Positions 2,511 to 30,834 of a stretch of DNA of 30,965 bases are shown in pieces. Position numbers and translations under genes: made by a program. Under the pieces are notes generated by a model that was not told the DNA's origin, did no database searches, and saw only the letters and a program-made list of their open reading frames with translations. Location: the UHGV virus genome UHGV-0305615; one strand, given 5' to 3'. The DNA comes from a virus. Numbering within the stretch: the first letter of the stretch is position 1; the number at the start of each line of letters is the position of its first letter.

Positions 2511-3392
2511 TTACATAGATGTTTCGTTTAATTCTTCCCGACGAACGCTGTAAACGTCGGTGGCTTTTGCCAGCAGTTCGTCATCATCTGAAAGTTTTTG
2601 TGCAATGTATTTGTAAGCCTTATCCAGTTCGGAGACAGTGCTGTAATTCATCGCTGCGCTGGTAAAGGCCATCAGCATTTCTTCTGGATCACGGCTATCC
2701 GCTTTACGCGTTTGCTCATCATGCTTTTTCACTGGTTTAGCGTTGATCAGACTGTTCATTCCCGCAGCAGTAGTCGTTTGCGGAGTAATGTCTCGCTCAA
2801 CGCGCGGTGCCGTTTCCTGTAATTCGTCAGGGGTGTAAACACCGAGAAGCACATCAGGAGCGTGCAGGCGAGCCCATCGTTTCGTGCAAAGATAGGCAAG
2901 CTGCTGGCGCGGATCCTGTTCCCACAATGGAGAGTTACGCACTCCGGCTTGCGCCATACTGATGGTAAGCTCACGGGGTTCTGCTTCTCCTTTAAGAACT
3001 GCTGACACAGTTACCGTCAGATTCGGTGATTTATCTGTTTTGCCGTTAACATTCGACCAGTCACCGCTCCAGCGATAATTCAGGCGTGTCGCTAGCAGGC
3101 TGGAAGAGGATACGACCGCGTTTACCAACTGTGCTTCGTAGCCTAACGTTCCGTTTACCACATGCGTTTTCTGCGCCACGGCGAAAGGGTTCATTCCCCA
3201 CTGTGCCGCCTGCATGGTCACCGCCAGACAATCGGCAGGTTTGCCTTCAAGATGTTTCGGTACAGTCGCTTTGCTTTGTGACATCAACTCCGCGAAACGC
3301 ACCAGTTGATTCATGCCCTCGGGGCTGAAGATTGCCGCAGCAGTGCCTACAGTTGCGCCTGGTTGTGATGTGATTGCGATATCATTGCTCAT
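2511..3392 (-). CDS. Single-strand annealing protein (RecT/Red-beta-like recombinase)
   Basis: 293 aa; start overlaps stop of the upstream exonuclease gene by 4 nt (3389-3392); family assigned mainly from synteny with the nuclease plus general sequence character. Confidence 0.65.
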   Translation of the reverse strand: MSNDIAITSQPGATVGTAAAIFSPEGMNQLVRFAELMSQSKATVPKHLEGKPADCLAVTMQAAQWGMNPFAVAQKTHVVNGTLGYEAQLVNAVVSSSSLLATRLNYRWSGDWSNVNGKTDKSPNLTVTVSAVLKGEAEPRELTISMAQAGVRNSPLWEQDPRQQLAYLCTKRWARLHAPDVLLGVYTPDELQETAPRVERDITPQTTTAAGMNSLINAKPVKKHDEQTRKADSRDPEEMLMAFTSAAMNYSTVSELDKAYKYIAQKLSDDDELLAKATDVYSVRREELNETSM

Positions 3393-4210
3393 ACGTACAT
3401 ATCCTGTTTACGTGCCCAGTCAGGGCGTTTAATAATTTCCACGCCGCCCCATTCATCATTTATGCGGCATTCGTGATAGGTATTCAGATCCCGGCGGAAC
3501 AGAGCGTGCCCGGCATCGACATCCGGCGCATCCAGCTCGAACACGCGTACCGGATACCGACCACAATCAATGCTTTCGCTCACGGCAAGAAAGAAAAAAC
3601 CATGCGGTTGACCAGTAACCCTCATTGCGCCTTCGCGGTACATTGCGTCCTGCACGTGGTAGCGGAATTCCTCGATGTGGCGTGCAAAACGGTCCATATC
3701 TGCAACCTTTTTCACGTCGACGATCACGTTGTGCTCGTTCAGCCATTTGTCTGGACGAATGCGGCACAACTCACCCGTCTCTTCATCGTTCCAGTACATT
3801 GATGCTTCGCAGTAACCAGGTGCTTCCAGCATCCAGCGTGCCGCCGGATGAGCCATTGCGCTATCACGCATGAGCTCAAGTTTTCGCCACTGCTCGACAT
3901 CAAGTACCGTAATACCCATATCCGCCACATCACGAAGAAATGCTTCTTCGTCAGCTTTACCTTGTTTTGTCCGACGATCGAATTTCGGTGAAACGATGAA
4001 GCGTTTGTCAAACTCTCCAGGTTCCAGAAGCAGACAGTGCAGAGCAGTACCCATGTCCAGTGCAGACTTCTTCTCTTCGTCTTCCGGAGCAGCCTTCACC
4101 CATTTCAGAAGGGCAGGGTTCTTAGCCACCATATCTAGCTGCGACTTACTCACGCCGTCACCGGCGTGGTAGTCCTCGTTGCTGATATCGAAATAAATTC
4201 CCGGATTCAT
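3389..4210 (-). CDS. Phage exonuclease, PD-(D/E)XK family (YqaJ/RecE-like)
   Basis: 273 aa; RIRPDKW...VIVDVKKV resembles PD-(D/E)XK active-site motifs; paired with annealing protein. Confidence 0.7.
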   Translation of the reverse strand: MNPGIYFDISNEDYHAGDGVSKSQLDMVAKNPALLKWVKAAPEDEEKKSALDMGTALHCLLLEPGEFDKRFIVSPKFDRRTKQGKADEEAFLRDVADMGITVLDVEQWRKLELMRDSAMAHPAARWMLEAPGYCEASMYWNDEETGELCRIRPDKWLNEHNVIVDVKKVADMDRFARHIEEFRYHVQDAMYREGAMRVTGQPHGFFFLAVSESIDCGRYPVRVFELDAPDVDAGHALFRRDLNTYHECRINDEWGGVEIIKRPDWARKQDMYV

Positions 4211-4508: not shown

Positions 4509-4661
4509 TCAGCCCTCCCATATCTCGTTATCGTTGGCTACATCGCGAGCTTCTTTGCTGACGAAAGCCCACTTAATGCCTTCCTGTAAGGTGCGGAACT
4601 TCCAGCTCATGAATCCGCATGCAGTAACGCAGTACCAACCGTTGATGATTTTCCACTGCAT
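4509..4661 (-). CDS. Hypothetical small protein (50 aa), first gene of leftward early operon
   Basis: Not in ORF track (below size cut-off). ATG 4661..4659 preceded by GAGGT; translation MQWKIINGWYCVTACGFMSWKFRTLQEGIKWAFVSKEARDVANDNEIWEG; stop 3 nt before next gene's start. Confidence 0.4.
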   Translation of the reverse strand: MQWKIINGWYCVTACGFMSWKFRTLQEGIKWAFVSKEARDVANDNEIWEG

Positions 4662-4680
4662 AACTTGTTACCTCGGTCGG

Positions 4681-4695
4681 TTACCGTTGAGGTAA
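4681..4695. promoter_or_regulatory. Predicted operator (dyad TTACCGTTGAGGTAA), leftward early promoter region
   Basis: Exact TTACC-N5-GGTAA dyad just downstream of a leftward TTGACA -35 (rc of 4718-4723). Confidence 0.5.
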
Positions 4696-4742
4696 TGATT
4701 ATGCGTATCTGGTTTGATGTCAATAGATATGAGTTAAAAAAA

Positions 4743-4757
4743 TTACCCATAAGGTAA
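4743..4757. promoter_or_regulatory. Predicted operator (dyad TTACCCATAAGGTAA)
   Basis: Exact TTACC-N5-GGTAA dyad between repressor-gene terminator and leftward promoter. Confidence 0.5.
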
Positions 4758-4769
4758 TCTTGTTGGTAA

Positions 4770-4792
4770 TAAAAAAGCCGCCATAAGGCGGC
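4770..4792 (-). terminator. Rho-independent terminator downstream of repressor gene
   Basis: GCCGCC-ATAA-GGCGGC hairpin (4777-4792) followed on the minus strand by a T6 run (A-run 4771-4776 on plus). Confidence 0.7.
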
Positions 4793-4814
4793 TTACTTAC
4801 TGAAAAATATGATT

Positions 4815-5399
4815 TTATTGTTTGTTTTTTTCGTTCTGGTTGATGACAAATTCAATGTAACTTTCGATCTTTGCCTTCTCTGTTTCAGGTAACAATGCGT
4901 AGCGCGAGCGGTCATAGTTGATAGTTGCAGGGTCATGCGGATGAATCAGTAGTTCATATCCGTGACGCCCGAATGCAGATGCAACATTCTCCAGGGTGGA
5001 AATGGAAACGCTGACTTCATTGTTTAACAGGCGGCTTATTGTCACCTGGGCGACGCCGGATGCGCGGTGAAGTTTTCCCTGAGTTGAAAGGTCGCGGCTT
5101 TCACTCATCCAGCGTTCCAGGTTGTGAGCTGCCAGCTGACCAATGTCGCTTGGGCCGACAGGCTGAAAACCTTCCTGAGAAAGCGAGCGATCGATATCAA
5201 GCCAGTTACGGGGTTTATTGGCGGCAGCTTCAATTTTTCGCGCAACCTGGTCGCCGATAACCTTCTTGCCAAGAGCCCAGCGGTTTACCAGATTTGCCTG
5301 AGTTCCAAGTTTTTCTGCCATCCGCGTCTGAACACCATTGAATTCACGGTCGATCAAGTCGTTGAGATTTTGCCTGCGGACGTCCTGGATACTTTTCAT
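4815..5399 (-). CDS. Prophage repressor, CI-like, two HTH domains, no peptidase S24 (autocleavage) domain
   Basis: 194 aa; two XRE-like HTH stretches (MAEKLGTQANLVNRWALGKK... and ASGVAQVTISRLLNNEVSVSISTLENVAS...); divergent from Cro-like gene; dyad operators on both sides. Confidence 0.7.
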   Translation of the reverse strand: MKSIQDVRRQNLNDLIDREFNGVQTRMAEKLGTQANLVNRWALGKKVIGDQVARKIEAAANKPRNWLDIDRSLSQEGFQPVGPSDIGQLAAHNLERWMSESRDLSTQGKLHRASGVAQVTISRLLNNEVSVSISTLENVASAFGRHGYELLIHPHDPATINYDRSRYALLPETEKAKIESYIEFVINQNEKNKQ

Positions 5400-5454
5400 T
5401 TTCTGGAAAATCGCCTCATATATGAATCAGTAGATGATTCAATTTAAAGCAATA

Positions 5455-5469
5455 TTACCCAACAGGTAA
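5455..5469. promoter_or_regulatory. Predicted operator (dyad TTACCCAACAGGTAA) in repressor/cro intergenic region
   Basis: Exact TTACC-N5-GGTAA dyad. Confidence 0.55.
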
Positions 5470-5502
5470 ATGCACCTCATAGGTAACTATCCTTGATTTT
5501 TG

Positions 5503-5517
5503 TTACCTTATGGGTGA
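5503..5517. promoter_or_regulatory. Predicted operator (TTACCTTATGGGTGA) overlapping rightward promoter
   Basis: One mismatch in right half; lies within the spacer of a TTGATT -35 / AT-rich -10 upstream of the Cro-like gene. Confidence 0.45.
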
Positions 5518-5553
5518 ATATTTATTATCTGAAATAAATATCAGGCAATAGCT

Positions 5554-5784
5554 ATGAGCGATAACGGACATTTCGATTTCAAAAAGCACTGGCTTGCACT
5601 TACTCCGGATGAGCGTGAAGCCTTCGCACAGGAAGCCGGAACGACGAGTCACTATATCCAGACTCACTTAACAGGTAAGCGCAAAATGCCAGGTAAAGTA
5701 TTGATGAATGGGCTTTTTAAAGCCTGTAAAACAAGACAATGGCTGCGCTCAAAAGCAGAACTGGCATACTTCTTCTACTCATGA
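5554..5784 (+). CDS. Cro-like HTH regulator
   Basis: 76 aa; divergent from repressor; HTH-like EAFAQEAGTTSHYIQTHLTGKRK; assignment mostly positional. Confidence 0.55.
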   Translation: MSDNGHFDFKKHWLALTPDEREAFAQEAGTTSHYIQTHLTGKRKMPGKVLMNGLFKACKTRQWLRSKAELAYFFYS

Positions 5785-5805
5785 TATCCAGCTACAACCC
5801 TCTGT

Positions 5806-5829
5806 AGACCGCCACCCGGCGGTCTTTTC
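5806..5829 (+). terminator. Rho-independent terminator after cro-like gene (tR1-like position)
   Basis: AGACCGCC-ACCC-GGCGGTCT hairpin followed by TTTT. Confidence 0.65.
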
Positions 5830-5934
5830 ATATCTATTCGTACCTCAAAGGTAATAAAAAACCAAATCTGGTTGATCTTTTTTTTGTGTCAGCACAAAAT
5901 GACCGTAATCCCAATACTAATAACAGGGCTTACC

Positions 5935-7761: not shown

Positions 7762-7776
7762 TTACCTGTTGGGTAA
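7762..7776. promoter_or_regulatory. Predicted operator (dyad TTACCTGTTGGGTAA) filling a promoter spacer
   Basis: Exact dyad lying between TTGATA (7755-7760) and TAAAAT (7777-7782). Confidence 0.55.
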
Positions 7777-7823
7777 TAAAATATTCTAAAATCTATTGAT
7801 TTCGTGTATTATGTGGTTTTTAA

Positions 7824-7838
7824 TTACCTTAGGGGTAA
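7824..7838. promoter_or_regulatory. Predicted operator (dyad TTACCTTAGGGGTAA) 4 nt upstream of ATG 7842
   Basis: Exact dyad. Confidence 0.5.
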
Positions 7839-7841
7839 ATC

Positions 7842-8186
7842 ATGAGAAAACAGATACAGGCTCTTGGTCGACTCAAAACAGGCCAGATGAACAAAACAGA
7901 ATCTGCGTATTGCCAGCACCTTGAGCTGCGTAAACGTGCAGGGGAAATCGCCTGGTATCGATTCGAGGGTATCAAGCTGCGGTTAGCTGATAACACGTTC
8001 TATACGCCAGATTTCGCTGTGATGCTCGCCACCGGAGAGATGGAACTGCACGAAGTGAAAGGTTTCTGGACCGACGACGCCAGGGTGAAAACCAAAGTAG
8101 CCGCAGATCAGTATCCGTTCCGAATCATCGGGGTAACGGTTAAACCAAAGAAAGCAGGTGGCGGCTGGAACATCGAAGAGTTCTGA
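7842..8186 (+). CDS. Hypothetical phage protein (114 aa)
   Basis: Complete ORF; first gene after the third operator-bearing promoter; no confidently recognised domain. Confidence 0.6.
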   Translation: MRKQIQALGRLKTGQMNKTESAYCQHLELRKRAGEIAWYRFEGIKLRLADNTFYTPDFAVMLATGEMELHEVKGFWTDDARVKTKVAADQYPFRIIGVTVKPKKAGGGWNIEEF

Positions 8187-10414: not shown

Positions 10415-10440
10415 GCCGCCAACTATGGCGGCTTTATTTT
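10415..10440 (+). terminator. Rho-independent terminator separating early genes from packaging genes
   Basis: GCCGCC-AACTAT-GGCGGC followed by TTTATTTT. Confidence 0.65.
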
Positions 10441-10451
10441 GCATGGTACTA

Positions 10452-10466
10452 TTACCAAAACGGTAA
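10452..10466. promoter_or_regulatory. Predicted operator (dyad TTACCAAAACGGTAA) upstream of TerS
   Basis: Exact dyad between terminator and TerS start; extra TTACC half-site at 10469-10473. Confidence 0.5.
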
Positions 10467-10483
10467 CTATTACCACGGTGGTT

Positions 10484-11080
10484 ATGATGCCTGCTGAACC
10501 TAAAACCTATAAACGCAAATCAACGCAATTTAAGCCACTAACAGCAATGCAGGAGGCTTATTGCCAGTCATACATCAAAACGCCTGAAAACCAGACTCAG
10601 GCAGCGATTAACGCAGGATTCTCCCCAAATACAGCGGCAGTTAAAGCCAGTGTCATGATGCGCGATGAACGCATTCAAAAACGGATTGCCGAGTTGATGG
10701 AGGAGCGCAACAAACGAATGCGCGTCAGTGCTGATTACGTTCTCATGCGCCTGGTGGAGATCGACCAGATGGACGTGATCGACATCCTCAACGACGATGG
10801 GAGCCTTAAGCCAATCCGCGAGTGGCCGAAAATCTGGCGCACTACGCTTAGTGGCTTTGATCTGTCATCGACCATCATGAACATGAACGAGGATTCGATA
10901 GAGACAATCCTCAAAAAAATTAAATGGCCTGACAAGGTGAAGAACCTCGAACTGATTGGTAAGCACGTCGACGTCAACGCATTCAAAGAACGCCTGGATG
11001 TTAATGTGAATGTGACAATTGCTGATCGCATAGCGGCAGCCAGGAAGAGACTGAAAGAACGTCAGGATGGCAATCAGTGA
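10484..11080 (+). CDS. Terminase small subunit
   Basis: Track ORF 10406..11080 trimmed to ATG 10484 because the 5' part contains the terminator and operator; family guess from sequence character and position before TerL. Confidence 0.65.
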   Translation: MMPAEPKTYKRKSTQFKPLTAMQEAYCQSYIKTPENQTQAAINAGFSPNTAAVKASVMMRDERIQKRIAELMEERNKRMRVSADYVLMRLVEIDQMDVIDILNDDGSLKPIREWPKIWRTTLSGFDLSSTIMNMNEDSIETILKKIKWPDKVKNLELIGKHVDVNAFKERLDVNVNVTIADRIAAARKRLKERQDGNQ

Positions 11081-13028: not shown

Positions 13029-13052
13029 AAAAAAATGCCCGGCGACCCGGGC
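13029..13052 (-). terminator. Rho-independent terminator on minus strand between tRNA and the 124-aa ORF
   Basis: GCCCGG-CGAC-CCGGGC hairpin followed on the minus strand by a T-run (A-run 13029-13035 on plus). Confidence 0.5.
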
Positions 13053-13215
13053 GAACTGGAAGCAATGAGTTATGCCTTCCGTGGCTGTACTGGTTTACAG
13101 CATGAAGTCATCGCAATGGCGTCCTGCTGTAAAAAGGGCGGTGATAGTTCTTCAAGGGAAACCATCACCGCCAAGCACCTGGAACTTCTGGCATCACGGT
13201 CCTTAGGCGTGATTC

Positions 13216-13292
13216 TGGCGTGGCATGCAGGATTCGAACCTGCGACCAACCGCTTAGAAGGCGGTTGCTCTGTCCGACTGAGCTAATGCCAC
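13216..13292 (-). tRNA. tRNA-Arg (anticodon UCU)
   Basis: 77-nt minus-strand sequence GTGGCATTAGCTCAGTCGGACAGAGCAACCGCCTTCTAAGCGGTTGGTCGCAGGTTCGAATCCTGCATGCCACGCCA folds as a cloverleaf: 7-bp acceptor stem, GCTC/GAGC D-stem, ACCGC/GCGGT anticodon stem with loop CTTCTAA, GCAGG/CCTGC T-stem with TTCGAAT loop, encoded CCA. Confidence 0.9.
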
Positions 13293-13614: not shown

Positions 13615-13629
13615 TTACCTGAAAGGTAA
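13615..13629. promoter_or_regulatory. Predicted operator (dyad TTACCTGAAAGGTAA) between tRNA leader and virion genes
   Basis: Exact dyad; a leftward TTGACA -35 (rc of 13646-13651) lies 17 bp away. Confidence 0.5.
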
Positions 13630-19426: not shown

Positions 19427-21897
19427 TGGCTATCAGTTGGATCCAGCCCAGCTTTGCCGGTGGTGAGATTGGACCGTCGTTGTATGGGCGTATTGACATG
19501 GCGAAGTACCAGGTGGCATTGCGCAAGTGCGATAACTTTATCGTGCGGCAGTATGGCGGCGTTGAGAATCGACCTGGTACGCGTTTTGTCGGTGCCGCCA
19601 AATATCCAAATCGGAAATGCCGCCTGATCCCGTTCCAGTTCTCGACGGTTCAGACCTATGCTCTGGAGTTCGGACACCAGTACATGCGCGTTATCAAAGA
19701 TGGTGCGTTGGTGCTGAACAGCAGCAATGTTATTTATGAAATTGCCACGCCATATACTGAAGCCGATCTGTTCCGAATTAAATTCACGCAAAGCGCCGAC
19801 GTGCTTACGCTGGTTCATCCGGCATACCCGCCGAAAGAGTTGCGCCGCTATGCGCATGACAACTGGCAACTGGTTGATGTGGTAACGAAGAACGGGCCAT
19901 TTGAAGATATCAATATTGACGAGTCAGTGACGGTTTATGCCAGCGCCAGCACCGGGACAATTACGTTAACGGCAAGCGCCTCTATTTTTGGCGCGGAGCA
20001 GGTAGGCAAATTGTTCTATCTGGAACAGCCTGCAGTGGATTCAGTACCGGTATGGGAAACCAGCAAGAGTACGTCGATTGGCGATATTCGCCGTGCAGAC
20101 AGTAACTACTATCGCGCCGTTACAGCAGGCAAAACAGGCACTTTGCGCCCTTCGCATACAGAAGGCACATCATGGGATGGCTGGGGCGGATCCGGTGATG
20201 ATGATACTGGCATTGAGTGGGAGTATCTGCACAGTGGTTTTGGCATTGCCCGTATCACGGCTGCAAATGGCACTACTGCAACTGCTGAGGTGATTTCCTA
20301 TATCCCTTCGCAGGTCGTTGGCGAGGATAATGCCAGCTATAAATGGGCTAAATATGCCTGGAACAGTGTTAATGGTTATCCTGGCACTGTTGTTTATTAT
20401 CAACAACGTCTTTACTTCGCCGCATCGACTGCGTTCCCTCAGACTATCTGGGCCAGCCGTACTGGGGATTATAAGGATTTTGGCAAAAGCAATCCTACGC
20501 AGGATGACGACAGAATTATCTACACCTATGCCGGGCGTCAGGTTAATGAGATCCGCCACCTGATTGATGTTGGTTCGCTGGTAGCGCTGACTTCCGGAGG
20601 TGAGTACGTCATCACTGGCGACCAGAACAAAGTGTTAACCCCATCATCATTTGCATTCAGCTCTCAGGGATCAAATGGCTCGAGCAATGTCCCACCAATT
20701 GCCGTGGCGAATATTGCTCTGTTCGTCCAGGAGAAAGGCAGTGTTGTCCGTGATCTGGCCTACTCATTCGATGTTGACGGCTATCAGGGGAACGACCTGA
20801 CCATCCTTGCCAATCATCTTTTTCAGAAGCACAGCATTGTTGACTGGTGCTTCTCTATTGTCCCTTACTCCAGCGCCTTCTGCATTCGTGATGACGGTAA
20901 ATTACTGGTGATGACCTATTTGCGTGATCAGCAGGTTTTTGCATGGGCACCACAATCCAGTACCGGAAAATATGAAAGCACATGCAGTATCAGCGAAGGA
21001 AATGAAGATGCGGTGTATTTCGTCGTTAACCGAACCGTTAACGGGCAAACAGTGAGATACATCGAGAGACTGTCCAGCCGTTTATTTACCAGCGATGAAG
21101 ATGCTTTCTTTGTTGATTCTGGCCTTAGCTATGATGGAAGAAATACGTCTGACAGAACGATGACCATCACTGGTGGTTCTGGCGAATGGGATTACCGCGC
21201 GGAATATACAATCAGTATTTCTGGCGGTGCGTACTTCACCAGTAGTGATGTCGGTGCGCAACTACAGTTCCCTTATACCGGAACTGCTCCTGATACTGGC
21301 GATGAAGTGTCAAAAGAATTACGTTGCGACATTATTTCTGTAACCAGCAACACCGCTGTAGTGGTTCGTGCTAACAGGAACGTCCCGCCATCCCTCAGGA
21401 ATGTGGCCACCACGAACTGGCAGATGGCGCGCCGGGCATTTGGCGGCTTGTCTCATCTTGAAGGTCAGACCGTAAACATCCTCTCTGATGCGAACGTGGA
21501 ACCACAGAAAGTAGTTTCCGGAGGTGCCGTCACGCTGGAATCACCGGGGGCTGTAGTGCACATCGGCCTGCCAATAACTGCTGAATTCGAAACACTGGAT
21601 ATCAACATTAACGGGCAGGAAACGCTGCTGGACAAAAAACAGGTGATCCCATCCGTTACTCTGGTTGTGAATGCCAGCCGCGGCATCTGGGCGACTACGC
21701 CCGGCGGTAAATGGTACGAATATCCACAGCGTGAATTCGAGTTCTACGATGATCCTGTTGATGACGCTACCGGAAAAGTAGAAGTGAAACTGGACAGTAA
21801 CTGGGGCAAAAACGGACGTGTAAGAATCCGTCAGCTTGACCCGTTGCCACTGTCTGTTCTTGCCGTTATTCCTCGCCTTACTGTTGGGGGATTCTGA
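19426..21897 (+). CDS. Tail tubular protein B / nozzle, T7 gp12-like
   Basis: 823 aa; N-terminus MAISWIQPSFAGGEIGPSLYGR parallels remembered gp12 MALISQSIKNLKGGISQQP; size close to T7 gp12 (794 aa). Confidence 0.65.
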   Translation: MAISWIQPSFAGGEIGPSLYGRIDMAKYQVALRKCDNFIVRQYGGVENRPGTRFVGAAKYPNRKCRLIPFQFSTVQTYALEFGHQYMRVIKDGALVLNSSNVIYEIATPYTEADLFRIKFTQSADVLTLVHPAYPPKELRRYAHDNWQLVDVVTKNGPFEDINIDESVTVYASASTGTITLTASASIFGAEQVGKLFYLEQPAVDSVPVWETSKSTSIGDIRRADSNYYRAVTAGKTGTLRPSHTEGTSWDGWGGSGDDDTGIEWEYLHSGFGIARITAANGTTATAEVISYIPSQVVGEDNASYKWAKYAWNSVNGYPGTVVYYQQRLYFAASTAFPQTIWASRTGDYKDFGKSNPTQDDDRIIYTYAGRQVNEIRHLIDVGSLVALTSGGEYVITGDQNKVLTPSSFAFSSQGSNGSSNVPPIAVANIALFVQEKGSVVRDLAYSFDVDGYQGNDLTILANHLFQKHSIVDWCFSIVPYSSAFCIRDDGKLLVMTYLRDQQVFAWAPQSSTGKYESTCSISEGNEDAVYFVVNRTVNGQTVRYIERLSSRLFTSDEDAFFVDSGLSYDGRNTSDRTMTITGGSGEWDYRAEYTISISGGAYFTSSDVGAQLQFPYTGTAPDTGDEVSKELRCDIISVTSNTAVVVRANRNVPPSLRNVATTNWQMARRAFGGLSHLEGQTVNILSDANVEPQKVVSGGAVTLESPGAVVHIGLPITAEFETLDININGQETLLDKKQVIPSVTLVVNASRGIWATTPGGKWYEYPQREFEFYDDPVDDATGKVEVKLDSNWGKNGRVRIRQLDPLPLSVLAVIPRLTVGGF

Positions 21898-30270: not shown

Positions 30271-30603
30271 TCAGTTATTTACTTTCTTTGGCACTATTGC
30301 TGATAATGAGATCATAAAGCCAGTTAGAGCAGCAATAATTAATGGGAATATGAAAGCATCTGAAGTTCTCAGTGGATTCTTCATATCGAACAGAATAACA
30401 ATGAAGAATGCGCTGGTTGCAAAAGTAGATGATGAATAAACCTCATTCATCTTGTATTGCAACTTATCCAAAGAAAAAGGAGGCGTATCTTTGCAAACGG
30501 CATCCCATATCAGATGAACAGCAAGATAAGCAATGCACAGTATGAAATAAAACCTTGTCAATTGCTGTGCATCTCTGGGCGCAAGCCAAGATAAATCAGG
30601 CAT
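30271..30603 (-). CDS. Hypothetical membrane protein (110 aa, about three predicted TM segments)
   Basis: Hydrophobic stretches FYFILCIAYLAVHLIW, FATSAFFIVILF, AFIFPLIIAALTGFMISLSAIV; start 1 nt after upstream gene's stop. Confidence 0.6.
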   Translation of the reverse strand: MPDLSWLAPRDAQQLTRFYFILCIAYLAVHLIWDAVCKDTPPFSLDKLQYKMNEVYSSSTFATSAFFIVILFDMKNPLRTSDAFIFPLIIAALTGFMISLSAIVPKKVNN

Positions 30604-30604
30604 T

Positions 30605-30793
30605 TTAGTTGGCTAACTTCTTTGCGGCATAGATAGCAGGGAGTGCAACAGCACCAGCCACAGCAAATGCATAGGCTATCCCAGCTGTAACAGTAAAAGC
30701 AGGAAGCAGGAAAGATAATCCGCCTGGTAGGGCAAAGCCTAAGCCCGCTCCGCCAATAATGGCCTTCAGCAATGTAATGATGTTGATTTCCAT
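30605..30793 (-). CDS. Hypothetical small membrane protein (62 aa, Gly/Ala-rich, two hydrophobic segments)
   Basis: GAGGGGG RBS; MEINIITLLKAIIGGAGLGFALPGG... with charged C-terminus KKLAN. Confidence 0.55.
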   Translation of the reverse strand: MEINIITLLKAIIGGAGLGFALPGGLSFLLPAFTVTAGIAYAFAVAGAVALPAIYAAKKLAN

Positions 30794-30819
30794 GTTTCCC
30801 CCTCATGTAAACTCTCGGT

Positions 30820-30834
30820 TTACCTTTGGGGTAA
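30820..30834. promoter_or_regulatory. Predicted operator (dyad TTACCTTTGGGGTAA) abutting the -10 of the membrane-operon promoter
   Basis: Exact dyad; minus-strand promoter TTGCAG (rc of 30857-30862), 17-bp spacer, TACTAT (rc of 30834-30839). Confidence 0.5.

Follow-up and report, generated by a model that had tools for sequence, protein, structure and literature searches.

A repressor gene bracketed by copies of one short palindrome raises two questions: whether the palindrome is the operator of that repressor, and how lysogeny is released if the repressor carries no protease segment. The DNA analysed (the window) is the whole 30,965 nucleotides of UHGV virus genome UHGV-0305615; it is ~98% identical to coliphage phiV10 (genus Uetakevirus), and its immunity region is present in 562 of 5426 complete E. 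coli genomes (~10%). We are highly confident that this region serves as the immunity switch of a temperate podophage of the phiV10-like (epsilon15-like, Uetakevirus) kind, with a non-autocleaving repressor (Rep) acting on the dyads and induction driven by an antirepressor (Ant). The system is already known, the repressor, its non-autocleavage, the antirepressor and the operator motif all being documented within the genus; what we add is the paired-dyad geometry at the promoters PL and Pm (62 bp; centres near -62 and +1). Our own analysis supplies the sites with their statistics, their conservation and their geometry, together with the homologies and the lack of an S24 domain.

The dyad and the Rep repressor

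The exact dyad TTACC-N5-GGTAA occurs eight times in the window (at 4681, 4743, 5455, 7762, 7824, 10452, 13615 and 30820) whereas 100 dinucleotide-preserving shuffles averaged 0.03 copies and never gave more than one, which bears out the preliminary description, where eight exact copies had been set against about 0.03 expected by chance and where all dyad coordinates proved correct. Allowing one mismatch gives 11 copies against 0.47 expected, the additional ones lying at 5503, 5840 and 10470; the second of these, at 5840-5854, had been listed before as an imperfect copy. At 5472-5486 lies a further copy with two mismatches (GCACC-N5-GGTAA), whose counterpart in the alignment with epsilon15 is an exact dyad. 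None of these 12 sites (eight exact, three with one mismatch, one with two) overlaps a gene, and in epsilon15 all 11 exact copies fall within the non-coding 6.6% of the genome, an outcome with a chance probability of about 1e-13. A reading of the palindrome as a restriction-modification target was rejected, since every copy is intergenic and at a promoter. The dyad is found again, in corresponding places, in Salmonella podophage SPC32H, Enterobacter phage Tyrion and Klebsiella phage BUCT711, and across the window, epsilon15 and these three phages its arms are invariant and its N5 is variable.

The gene bracketed by the dyads was confirmed as an open reading frame where it had first been placed:

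4815-5399, minus strand: repressor Rep, 194 aa, with assigned N-terminal DNA-binding HTH, middle dimerization and C-terminal tetramerization/Ant-binding domains

Rep is 100% identical to phiV10 p40 and to ORF21 of vB_EcoP_ZX5, whose overexpression eliminated free phage and lowered endolysin and holin transcripts by >99.9% (PMC9782041). A phmmer search against PDB aligned its residues 1-190 with SPC32H Rep (5D50_A, E = 4e-42) at 42% identity overall (54% in the N-terminal, 32% in the middle and 49% in the C-terminal domain), with the tetramer-interface positions Phe187 and Phe190 aligning with Tyr181 and Phe184. Among the window, epsilon15, SPC32H, Tyrion and BUCT711 lineages Rep identity ranges from 42 to 78%, and the NLVNRW segment of the N-terminal domain, a putative recognition segment, is invariant in all dyad-keeping lineages. 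In the epsilon15 RefSeq record (NC_004775), seven ATTACC-N5-GGTAAT sites are annotated as 'protein_bind: repressor, lysogeny'. Because Rep is a full-length homologue of SPC32H Rep and the epsilon15 dyads are annotated as repressor-binding, the dyads are very probably the operators of Rep. Its N-terminal HTH would bind the palindrome (A)TTACC-N5-GGTAA(T), and the middle HTH-fold and C-terminal domains would dimerize and tetramerize, respectively.

If the dyads were instead mainly sites of another protein (the Cro-like protein, a late-gene regulator or a host factor), Rep would have to read something else. Shared use is plausible, as lambda Cro shares its operators with CI, and the dyads of the late operons stand without clear sigma-70 promoters. 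However, the rep gene lies between dyads, the putative recognition segment stays invariant wherever the dyad is kept, the annotation of epsilon15 credits the sites to the repressor, and alignments of the operator regions (PL, Pm and OR) showed no repeated motif besides the dyad; we consider this alternative very unlikely. Use of the dyads by the Cro-like protein as well would not contradict their being operators of Rep.

Rep had also been described as a 'dual-HTH' protein. Pfam does find two HTH regions, HTH_3 at residues 106-147 (E = 1.2e-9) and a weak Cro/YdaS-like HTH at residues 21-61, but the label is misleading. In the solved homologue an N-terminal DBD is followed by the MDD (dimerization) and then by TetDloop/CAD (PMC9986798), and by analogy the 'second HTH' corresponds to the dimerization domain rather than to a second DNA reader. 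The competing idea that both regions read DNA, for example with one domain per dyad of a 62-bp pair, draws on the HTH_3 match being stronger than the N-terminal one. It is nonetheless highly improbable, given the N-terminal location of DNA binding in the homologue (also in PMC9638917) and given that, between lineages sharing the dyad, the middle domain is less conserved (32%) than the N-terminal domain (54%).

Arrangement of the sites at PL, Pm and OR

The leftward TTGACA promoter that had been proposed between the left dyads was recovered, with the following features around it:

4681-4695: PL-proximal operator dyad TTACCGTTGAGGTAA, exact, centred on the predicted PL start (about 4688)
4695-4723, minus strand: leftward early promoter PL, TTGACA (4718-4723), 17 bp, AATCAT; 10/12 consensus matches
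4743-4757: PL-distal operator dyad TTACCCATAAGGTAA, exact, 62 bp away from the proximal dyad, with its centre near -62
4775-4794, minus strand: intrinsic terminator 3' of the repressor gene, from the scan; phiV10 annotation at the same place

PL is predicted to drive small ORFs, an exonuclease and RecT. Its proximal dyad abuts the -10 hexamer AATCAT at 4695-4700, and both arms of this dyad are invariant across six phages (alignment A1), as is CTATTGAC at PL. The spacing of the PL dyads is kept at 62/63 bp in epsilon15, SPC32H, Tyrion and BUCT711. A second pair with the same geometry lies further to the right:

7762-7776: distal dyad of the second 62-bp pair, exact, centred near -62
7796-7824, plus strand: putative promoter Pm, TTGATT, 17 bp, TTTAAT (sequence reading), for the DUF1064 gene and downstream genes
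7824-7838: proximal dyad of the Pm pair, exact, centred on the predicted start (about 7831)

At Pm the segment CTATTGA is invariant (alignment A2), and the proximal dyad covers the ribosome-binding site of the gene at 7842.

We propose that the operators are placed to block RNA polymerase. At the predicted PL, Pm, terminase and accessory-operon promoters the -10 hexamer would overlap the dyad by one base, which would put the predicted transcription start at the dyad centre, and at PL and Pm the second dyad lies upstream at a distance of exactly 62 bp, or about six helical turns, on the same face. As the 62-bp spacing is conserved in all five lineages, it suggests that one Rep tetramer, having two DNA-binding units, holds both dyads of a pair. 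The tetramer on DNA is taken from the SPC32H homologue, Rep of which binds in this form (PMC9638917); the bridging of a pair by a single tetramer and the promoter controlled by each dyad are what we infer for this phage. The 62-bp pairs (centres near -62 and +1; PL and Pm) are kept in E. coli, Salmonella, Enterobacter and Klebsiella phages, and operators and Ant have remained near-unchanged (Ant at 75/86 aligned positions) while Rep has diverged to 42%. More tentatively, and in our view less probably than not, the pairs might serve as a 'promoter clamp' in which the tetramer encloses the whole promoter, with Rep acting directly on every operon, those of late genes among them, and with operators and Ant conserved despite the diverged Rep. 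If this were true, phages from different host genera would be expected to show cross-immunity and cross-induction.

To the right of rep, the interval before the Cro-like gene holds three sites:

5442-5470, minus strand: putative repressor promoter, -35 TTTACC (5465-5470), -10 TTAAAT (5442-5447); weak, 8/12; sequence reading
5455-5469: operator OR-a TTACCCAACAGGTAA, exact dyad
5472-5486: degenerate operator OR-b GCACCTCATAGGTAA, with 2 mismatches and at 17 bp from OR-a
5493-5528, plus strand: rightward promoter region PR, with the invariant TTGATT (5493-5498) as likely -35
5503-5517: operator OR-c TTACCTTATGGGTGA, with 1 mismatch, within the spacer of PR at 31 bp from OR-b
5554-5784, plus strand: Cro-like small regulator, 76 aa; PHROG 35 'transcriptional repressor', E = 5.6e-13
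5806-5825, plus strand: intrinsic terminator 3' of the cro-like gene, from the scan and the phiV10 annotation
5840-5854: variant dyad GTACCTCAAAGGTAA, with a possible promoter (TTGATC at 5872) downstream of it

The promoter scan placed PR at 5500-5528 (TTGTTA, 17 bp, TATTAT), differing from the likely -35 TTGATT, and its calls did not include the repressor promoter at 5442-5470, which is proposed within a block conserved in six phages (alignment A3). In this alignment OR-b matches an exact dyad in epsilon15, SPC32H and BUCT711. OR-a covers the -35 and spacer of the putative repressor promoter, and the perfect OR dyad thereby lies over the promoter of rep itself and not over PR, a poor fit to a simple lambda-like occupancy order. 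Together, the three sites (spacings 17 and 31 bp) would extend over the spacer of PR and the rep promoter's -35, and their occupancy would repress the lytic promoter and autoregulate rep. The 76-aa Cro-like protein had no Pfam match and is a homologue of epsilon15 gp39. Beyond its terminator, the possible TTGATC promoter would serve a 66-aa gene and the replication genes, and the GTACC variant of the dyad is also found at the equivalent place in Tyrion (35365). The lambda-like OL/cI/OR/cro layout suggested earlier thus describes the surroundings of the repressor gene but not the rest of the window, where dyads also occur at middle, late and accessory units.

Dyads at late and accessory genes

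Four of the sites lie before structural or accessory genes:

10452-10466: terminase dyad, exact, just before the small-terminase ATG at 10486
10470-10484: weaker companion dyad TTACCACGGTGGTTA, 1 mismatch, 18 bp downstream of the terminase dyad
13615-13629: head-operon dyad, exact, upstream of the gp3-like/portal operon
30820-30834: accessory-operon dyad, exact, abutting TACTAT

The epsilon15 homologues of the terminase and head-operon dyads (12-27 and 2931-2947, respectively) are both annotated as repressor-binding, and the companion site at the 18-bp offset is also present in epsilon15 and Tyrion. By sequence reading only, the terminase dyad abuts an extended -10-like TGgTACTAT. The promoter scan found no promoter at either the terminase or the head-operon dyad, and sigma-70 matches at the head-operon site are poor; because clear matches are missing at both, these dyads might work as roadblocks or jointly with a late activator. 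The accessory-operon dyad lies upstream of two leftward genes, 30605-30793 and 30271-30603, which form an operon for small membrane proteins, and is also found in E. coli chromosomes with the same module. In the window the dyad therefore precedes the DUF1064-gene promoter, the terminase genes, the head genes and the accessory operon, and in relatives it is also found by ant, the lysis genes and int, so that direct action of the repressor on nearly all transcription units seems likely.

The accessory module, at the right end of the window, varies among complete E. coli genomes, none of which covers 80% or more of that end, and an exact-protein look-up recovers chromosomes that share it. An 82-aa ORF in this module (30558-30806, minus strand) was considered as Ant and rejected, having no meaningful match and being in the wrong frame; the real gene over it encodes a 62-aa membrane protein (30605-30793, PHROG 13406).

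Induction and relation to known switches

If the switch were of the classical lambda type, Rep would be cleaved with the aid of RecA through a cryptic or divergent LexA-like protease segment. The succession of left operators, repressor, right operators and cro-like gene does resemble the order in lambda, and the relative ZX5 is inducible with mitomycin C. However, a Pfam search of Rep found no Peptidase_S24 at E <= 0.1, Rep aligns as a whole with SPC32H Rep, in which the C-terminal part consists of dimerization and tetramerization domains, and a LexA-controlled Ant is present in the lineage, leaving cleavage of this kind extremely improbable. As far as its domain content predicts, Rep is not of the autocleaving type, in support of the earlier suggestion that it has no S24 segment and that induction is probably not by RecA-stimulated self-cleavage.

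Induction through Ant would account for release without cleavage. The window ends inside a Bro-N gene, and ant probably lies just beyond its right end, outside the window: E. coli chromosomes matching the last 150 nt of the window at 149/150 encode, about 1.2 kb away, an Ant homologue of 85 aa, and phiV10 likewise carries an Ant homologue beyond the region equivalent to the right end. The E. coli homologue is identical to SPC32H Ant at 75/86 aligned positions, and a LexA box TACTGTATAAATATACAGTT lies just upstream of the ant of the lineage, with a Rep dyad nearby. In epsilon15, gp19 matches the 'Anti-repressor protein' 5D50_E with E = 4.9e-53 and is near-identical over all 86 residues. LexA control of Ant is carried over from homologues: a LexA-controlled Ant inactivates the SPC32H repressor (PMC7380047, citing Kim & Ryu 2013), and Rep tetramers are broken up by the Ant tetramer (PMC9638917). 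In this lineage, DNA damage would accordingly remove LexA, Ant would be made, and the Rep tetramer would be disassembled and come off the DNA. The ZX5 paper names the Bro-N protein, not the small SPC32H-type Ant, as anti-repressor. A LexA box inside the window (CTGTACTGGTTTACAG at 13085, an exact CTGT-N8-ACAG) was rejected, as matches of this kind are no more frequent in the window than chance predicts and relatives lack this one.

The closest system is the SPC32H Rep-Ant lytic switch, reportedly the work of Kim & Ryu in 2013 and Kim et al. in 2016 with structures 5D4Z and 5D50 in PDB. It shares with the window the full-length Rep homology, the gene order, an identical operator dyad at the same positions with the same 62-bp pairs, and an Ant homologue with a LexA box in the lineage. 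It differs in Rep itself (only 42% identical overall), in OR, which has one exact and two degenerate sites here and two exact and one degenerate in SPC32H, and in PL, where the SPC32H third site, 76 bp downstream, has no counterpart here; in addition, an extra Bro-N gene and the small accessory operon adjoin ant in the lineage of the window.

Epsilon15, whose genome is said to have been described by Kropinski et al. in 2007, has the major repressor gp38 and the same ATTACC-N5-GGTAAT motif, with sites before the terminase, before the head operon, at PL and before the post-replication gene, in another host and with another repressor allele. Missing from the seven sites in its record are those of OR and of the lysis cassette, as well as the partner dyad in one 62-bp pair. 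In phiV10, p40 is annotated as 'putative transcriptional repressor, two helix-turn-helix motifs', and the phiV10 and ZX5 records and the ZX5 paper list no operator sites. As a discovery the switch matters little, and its practical value is in annotation: public records of the phiV10 type carry no operator marks and the epsilon15 record marks only some, so a full operator map with the -62/+1 geometry would improve annotation and offer a simple test of how a tetrameric repressor engages DNA.

The likeness to lambda CI/Cro is one of layout only: a repressor gene flanked by operator clusters, a small Cro-like gene to its right, and repressor and lytic promoters diverging from a three-site OR. In contrast to lambda, the repressor here has no S24 domain and another fold and assembly, operators are also found at middle, late and accessory promoters, and induction would be by antirepressor. 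P1 C1 is likewise one repressor at many scattered operators, which in P1 are asymmetric. In 186 (Tum), Fels-2 and Gifsy, SOS removes LexA and the antirepressor then made inactivates a non-self-cleaving repressor (PMC7380047). These antirepressors follow the same logic as Rep-Ant; their proteins, like P1 C1, are unrelated to those of the switch here.

Distribution of the operator dyads

The window carries, in order, left early genes, immunity, replication, terminase and virion genes and a tail region. Its immunity region is ~98% identical to that of coliphage phiV10 and ~15 further epsilon15-like podophages of E. coli (genus Uetakevirus). Of 5426 complete E. coli genomes, 562 carry this region (positions 4600–5900), with few exceptions as a single chromosomal copy at 95–99% identity. 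The preliminary description had counted eight exact copies of the dyad TTACC-N5-GGTAA against about 0.03 expected by chance. We found the same eight (4681, 4743, 5455, 7762, 7824, 10452, 13615 and 30820), and 100 dinucleotide-preserving shuffles of the window gave a mean of 0.03 and never more than one. Allowing one mismatch adds 5503, 5840 and 10470 (11 sites versus 0.47 expected), and 5472–5486 is a two-mismatch copy aligned with an exact dyad in relatives; none of these 12 sites overlaps a gene. The positions given for the repressor (Rep) ORF, the leftward TTGACA promoter and both terminators were likewise reproduced. The original observation is confirmed and its interpretation as an immunity switch supported.

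In four complete related phages, exact dyads number 11 in epsilon15, 10 in Salmonella phage SPC32H and 9 each in Enterobacter phage Tyrion and Klebsiella phage BUCT711, and their positions relative to genes are the same in all four relatives.

Dyad positions in the relatives
At the leftward early promoter, PL
Between rep and the cro-like gene
Past the terminator of the cro-like gene (GTACC variant in the window and Tyrion)
Before the gene following the replication genes
Ahead of the small terminase gene, plus a weaker second site 18 bp farther downstream
Upstream of the gp3/portal operon
In the ant/tail-fibre region
Upstream of the lysis genes
Upstream of int (GGTAT variant)

Taken together, 47 exact sites show no variation in the arms; N5 is variable and A/T-rich, and there is a preference for A in the left flank and for T in the right one. 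All 11 exact copies in epsilon15 are non-coding, while non-coding sequence makes up 6.6% of that genome. Seven 'protein_bind: repressor, lysogeny' features, all ATTACC-N5-GGTAAT, are annotated in the epsilon15 RefSeq record. Five further sites (24704, 33341, 33358, 33388 and 35969) are unmarked: three lie between rep and gp39, one precedes the lysis cassette, and one is the second site of the 62-bp pair upstream of the RuvC-like gene. The one-mismatch form TTACC-N5-GGTAT, just upstream of the integrase gene and near attP, is kept in 4/4 relatives (epsilon15 26882, SPC32H 26960, and 28568 and 12620 in the Tyrion/BUCT711 genomes L005 and L006), and suggests that Rep also acts on int; the matching position falls left of the window.

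Predicted operator placement at the promoters

Promoters associated with the dyads
4718–4723 (−35 TTGACA) and 4695–4700 (−10 AATCAT), minus strand: PL
7796–7801 (TTGATT), 17 bp, and 7819–7824 (TTTAAT), plus strand: predicted promoter upstream of the DUF1064 gene
5465–5470 (−35 TTTACC) and 5442–5447 (−10 TTAAAT), minus strand: candidate rep promoter, weak, conserved

At PL the −10 element ends on the T with which the proximal dyad begins, an overlap that would place the start site at about the dyad centre (4688) and the centre of the distal dyad near −62. The DUF1064 promoter repeats this arrangement, with dyad centres at 7831 (proximal) and 7769 (distal). Both promoters have a dyad spacing of exactly 62 bp in all of the phages compared, the sole exception being one 63-bp pair in BUCT711, and a CTATTGA block between the paired dyads is invariant. 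As 62 bp is approximately six helical turns, both sites would lie on the same side of the helix. The middle-domain pairs of Rep are reported to be ~100 Å apart and to have linkers of ~20 residues (PMC9986798); since a tetramer has four DNA-binding domains, and thus two operator-binding units, it is plausible that a single Rep tetramer holds both dyads of a pair. A −10-like hexamer abutting the dyad (TACTAT then TACC) is also found at the terminase site 10447–10466, with an extended-10-like TG, and recurs at 30820 on the minus strand. This promoter geometry is our own addition, which we infer from the sequence.

The interval between rep and the cro-like gene contains three sites, OR-a (5455–5469), OR-b (5472–5486) and OR-c (5503–5517), spaced 17 and 31 bp apart. 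The candidate rep promoter has its −35 and spacer under OR-a and its start ~44 bp downstream of OR-b, and OR-c falls within the spacer of the rightward promoter, PR. The proposed lambda-like layout holds for the arrangement of sites, which resembles OR1–3; unlike the lambda-style order, however, the strongest match covers the repressor's own promoter.

Repressor, antirepressor and induction

Both the system and its induction mechanism are already known: the phage belongs to a described type, its repressor has been tested, the structure of a homologue and its antirepressor (Ant) has been solved, and the motif is annotated in epsilon15. Rep is 100% identical to phiV10 p40 (annotated 'putative transcriptional repressor, two helix-turn-helix motifs') and to vB_EcoP_ZX5 ORF21, overexpression of which abolished free phage and lowered endolysin and holin transcripts by >99.9% (PMC9782041). 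Pfam places HTH_3 at residues 106–147 and a weak Cro/YdaS-type HTH at 21–61, and PHROGs assigns repressor families to both halves; the Pfam search found no S24 peptidase in Rep, in line with its claimed absence. Among solved structures, it has a full-length match in SPC32H Rep (5D50_A, E = 4e-42). The SPC32H protein consists of an N-terminal DNA-binding, a middle dimerization and a C-terminal tetramerization domain, the last also binding Ant (PMC9986798); the DNA is bound by a Rep tetramer, which tetrameric Ant breaks (PMC9638917). The second of the two Pfam regions behind the 'dual-HTH' label thus corresponds, in the homologue, to a module for dimerization and not to another domain that reads DNA. 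Rep identity among these phages is 42–78%; conservation is highest in the N-terminal domain (54% identity with SPC32H), and its segment NLVNRW is invariant, a pattern that fits an unchanged DNA specificity.

No ant gene is present within the window, whose last ~60 bases are the 3′ end of the Bro-N gene. phiV10 p24 is an Ant homologue with the LexA box AACTGTATAAATACACAGTA upstream. E. coli chromosomes found by exact-protein look-up match the last 150 nt of the window at 149/150 and encode an 85-aa Ant homologue ~1.2 kb past this match, with the LexA box TACTGTATAAATATACAGTT immediately upstream of its start codon and a Rep dyad in the vicinity. Additionally, epsilon15 gp19 is nearly identical, over all 86 residues, to the Ant that was crystallized (5D50_E, E = 4.9e-53). 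Cleavage of LexA leads to Ant production, as stated in the passage of PMC7380047 that cites Kim & Ryu 2013, and ZX5 is mitomycin C-inducible. Given these LexA box-bearing homologues, the match to crystallized Ant and the induction of ZX5, the earlier guess that induction does not proceed by self-cleavage was correct.

A further sequence with an exact CTGT-N8-ACAG core, CTGTACTGGTTTACAG (13085–13100, between the p03-like gene and the tRNA), was rejected as a LexA box: it is absent from epsilon15, SPC32H, Tyrion and BUCT711, and the window contains about as many such matches as chance predicts, so that it probably has no function.

Between the E. coli and Salmonella phages, Ant is identical at 75/86 aligned positions (2415–2672 of the E. 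coli locus L009 versus SPC32H 19676–19936) versus 42% for Rep, while the operators are the same, which hints that phages of different hosts might cross-induce one another or be cross-immune. Against the secondary papers and database records covered, this contrast, the full operator map of phiV10-type phages and the strictly conserved −62/+1 pairs may be new.

Neighbouring genes

Genes discussed in this section
13216–13292, minus strand: tRNA-Arg (anticodon TCT), under an 83-aa ORF (13035–13286, plus strand)
2511–3392, minus strand: RecT, separate ORF overlapping the exonuclease
3389–4210, minus strand: exonuclease, separate ORF overlapping RecT

The 83-aa ORF, called hypothetical protein p04 in phiV10, is probably a spurious CDS; SPC32H has an annotated tRNA-Arg at the corresponding position. 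The longest small-terminase ORF starts at TTG 10406 (the equivalent start in the phiV10 annotation is at 41) and would contain the terminator hairpin 10415–10432 and two repressor dyads; translation more likely starts, as in epsilon15, at ATG 10486 directly behind the dyads. A variable accessory slot lies downstream of the Bro-N gene, in the window (30271–30793, minus strand) as in loci L007, L008 and L009. In the window it encodes two small membrane proteins of 62 and 110 aa, preceded by a repressor dyad of their own; in relatives it is occupied by a YafO toxin or a DUF4760 protein. Finally, where the window has RecT and exonuclease ORFs, phiV10 annotates one 'RecET fusion' gene, p37; the difference may be genuine or due to a frameshift in either sequence.
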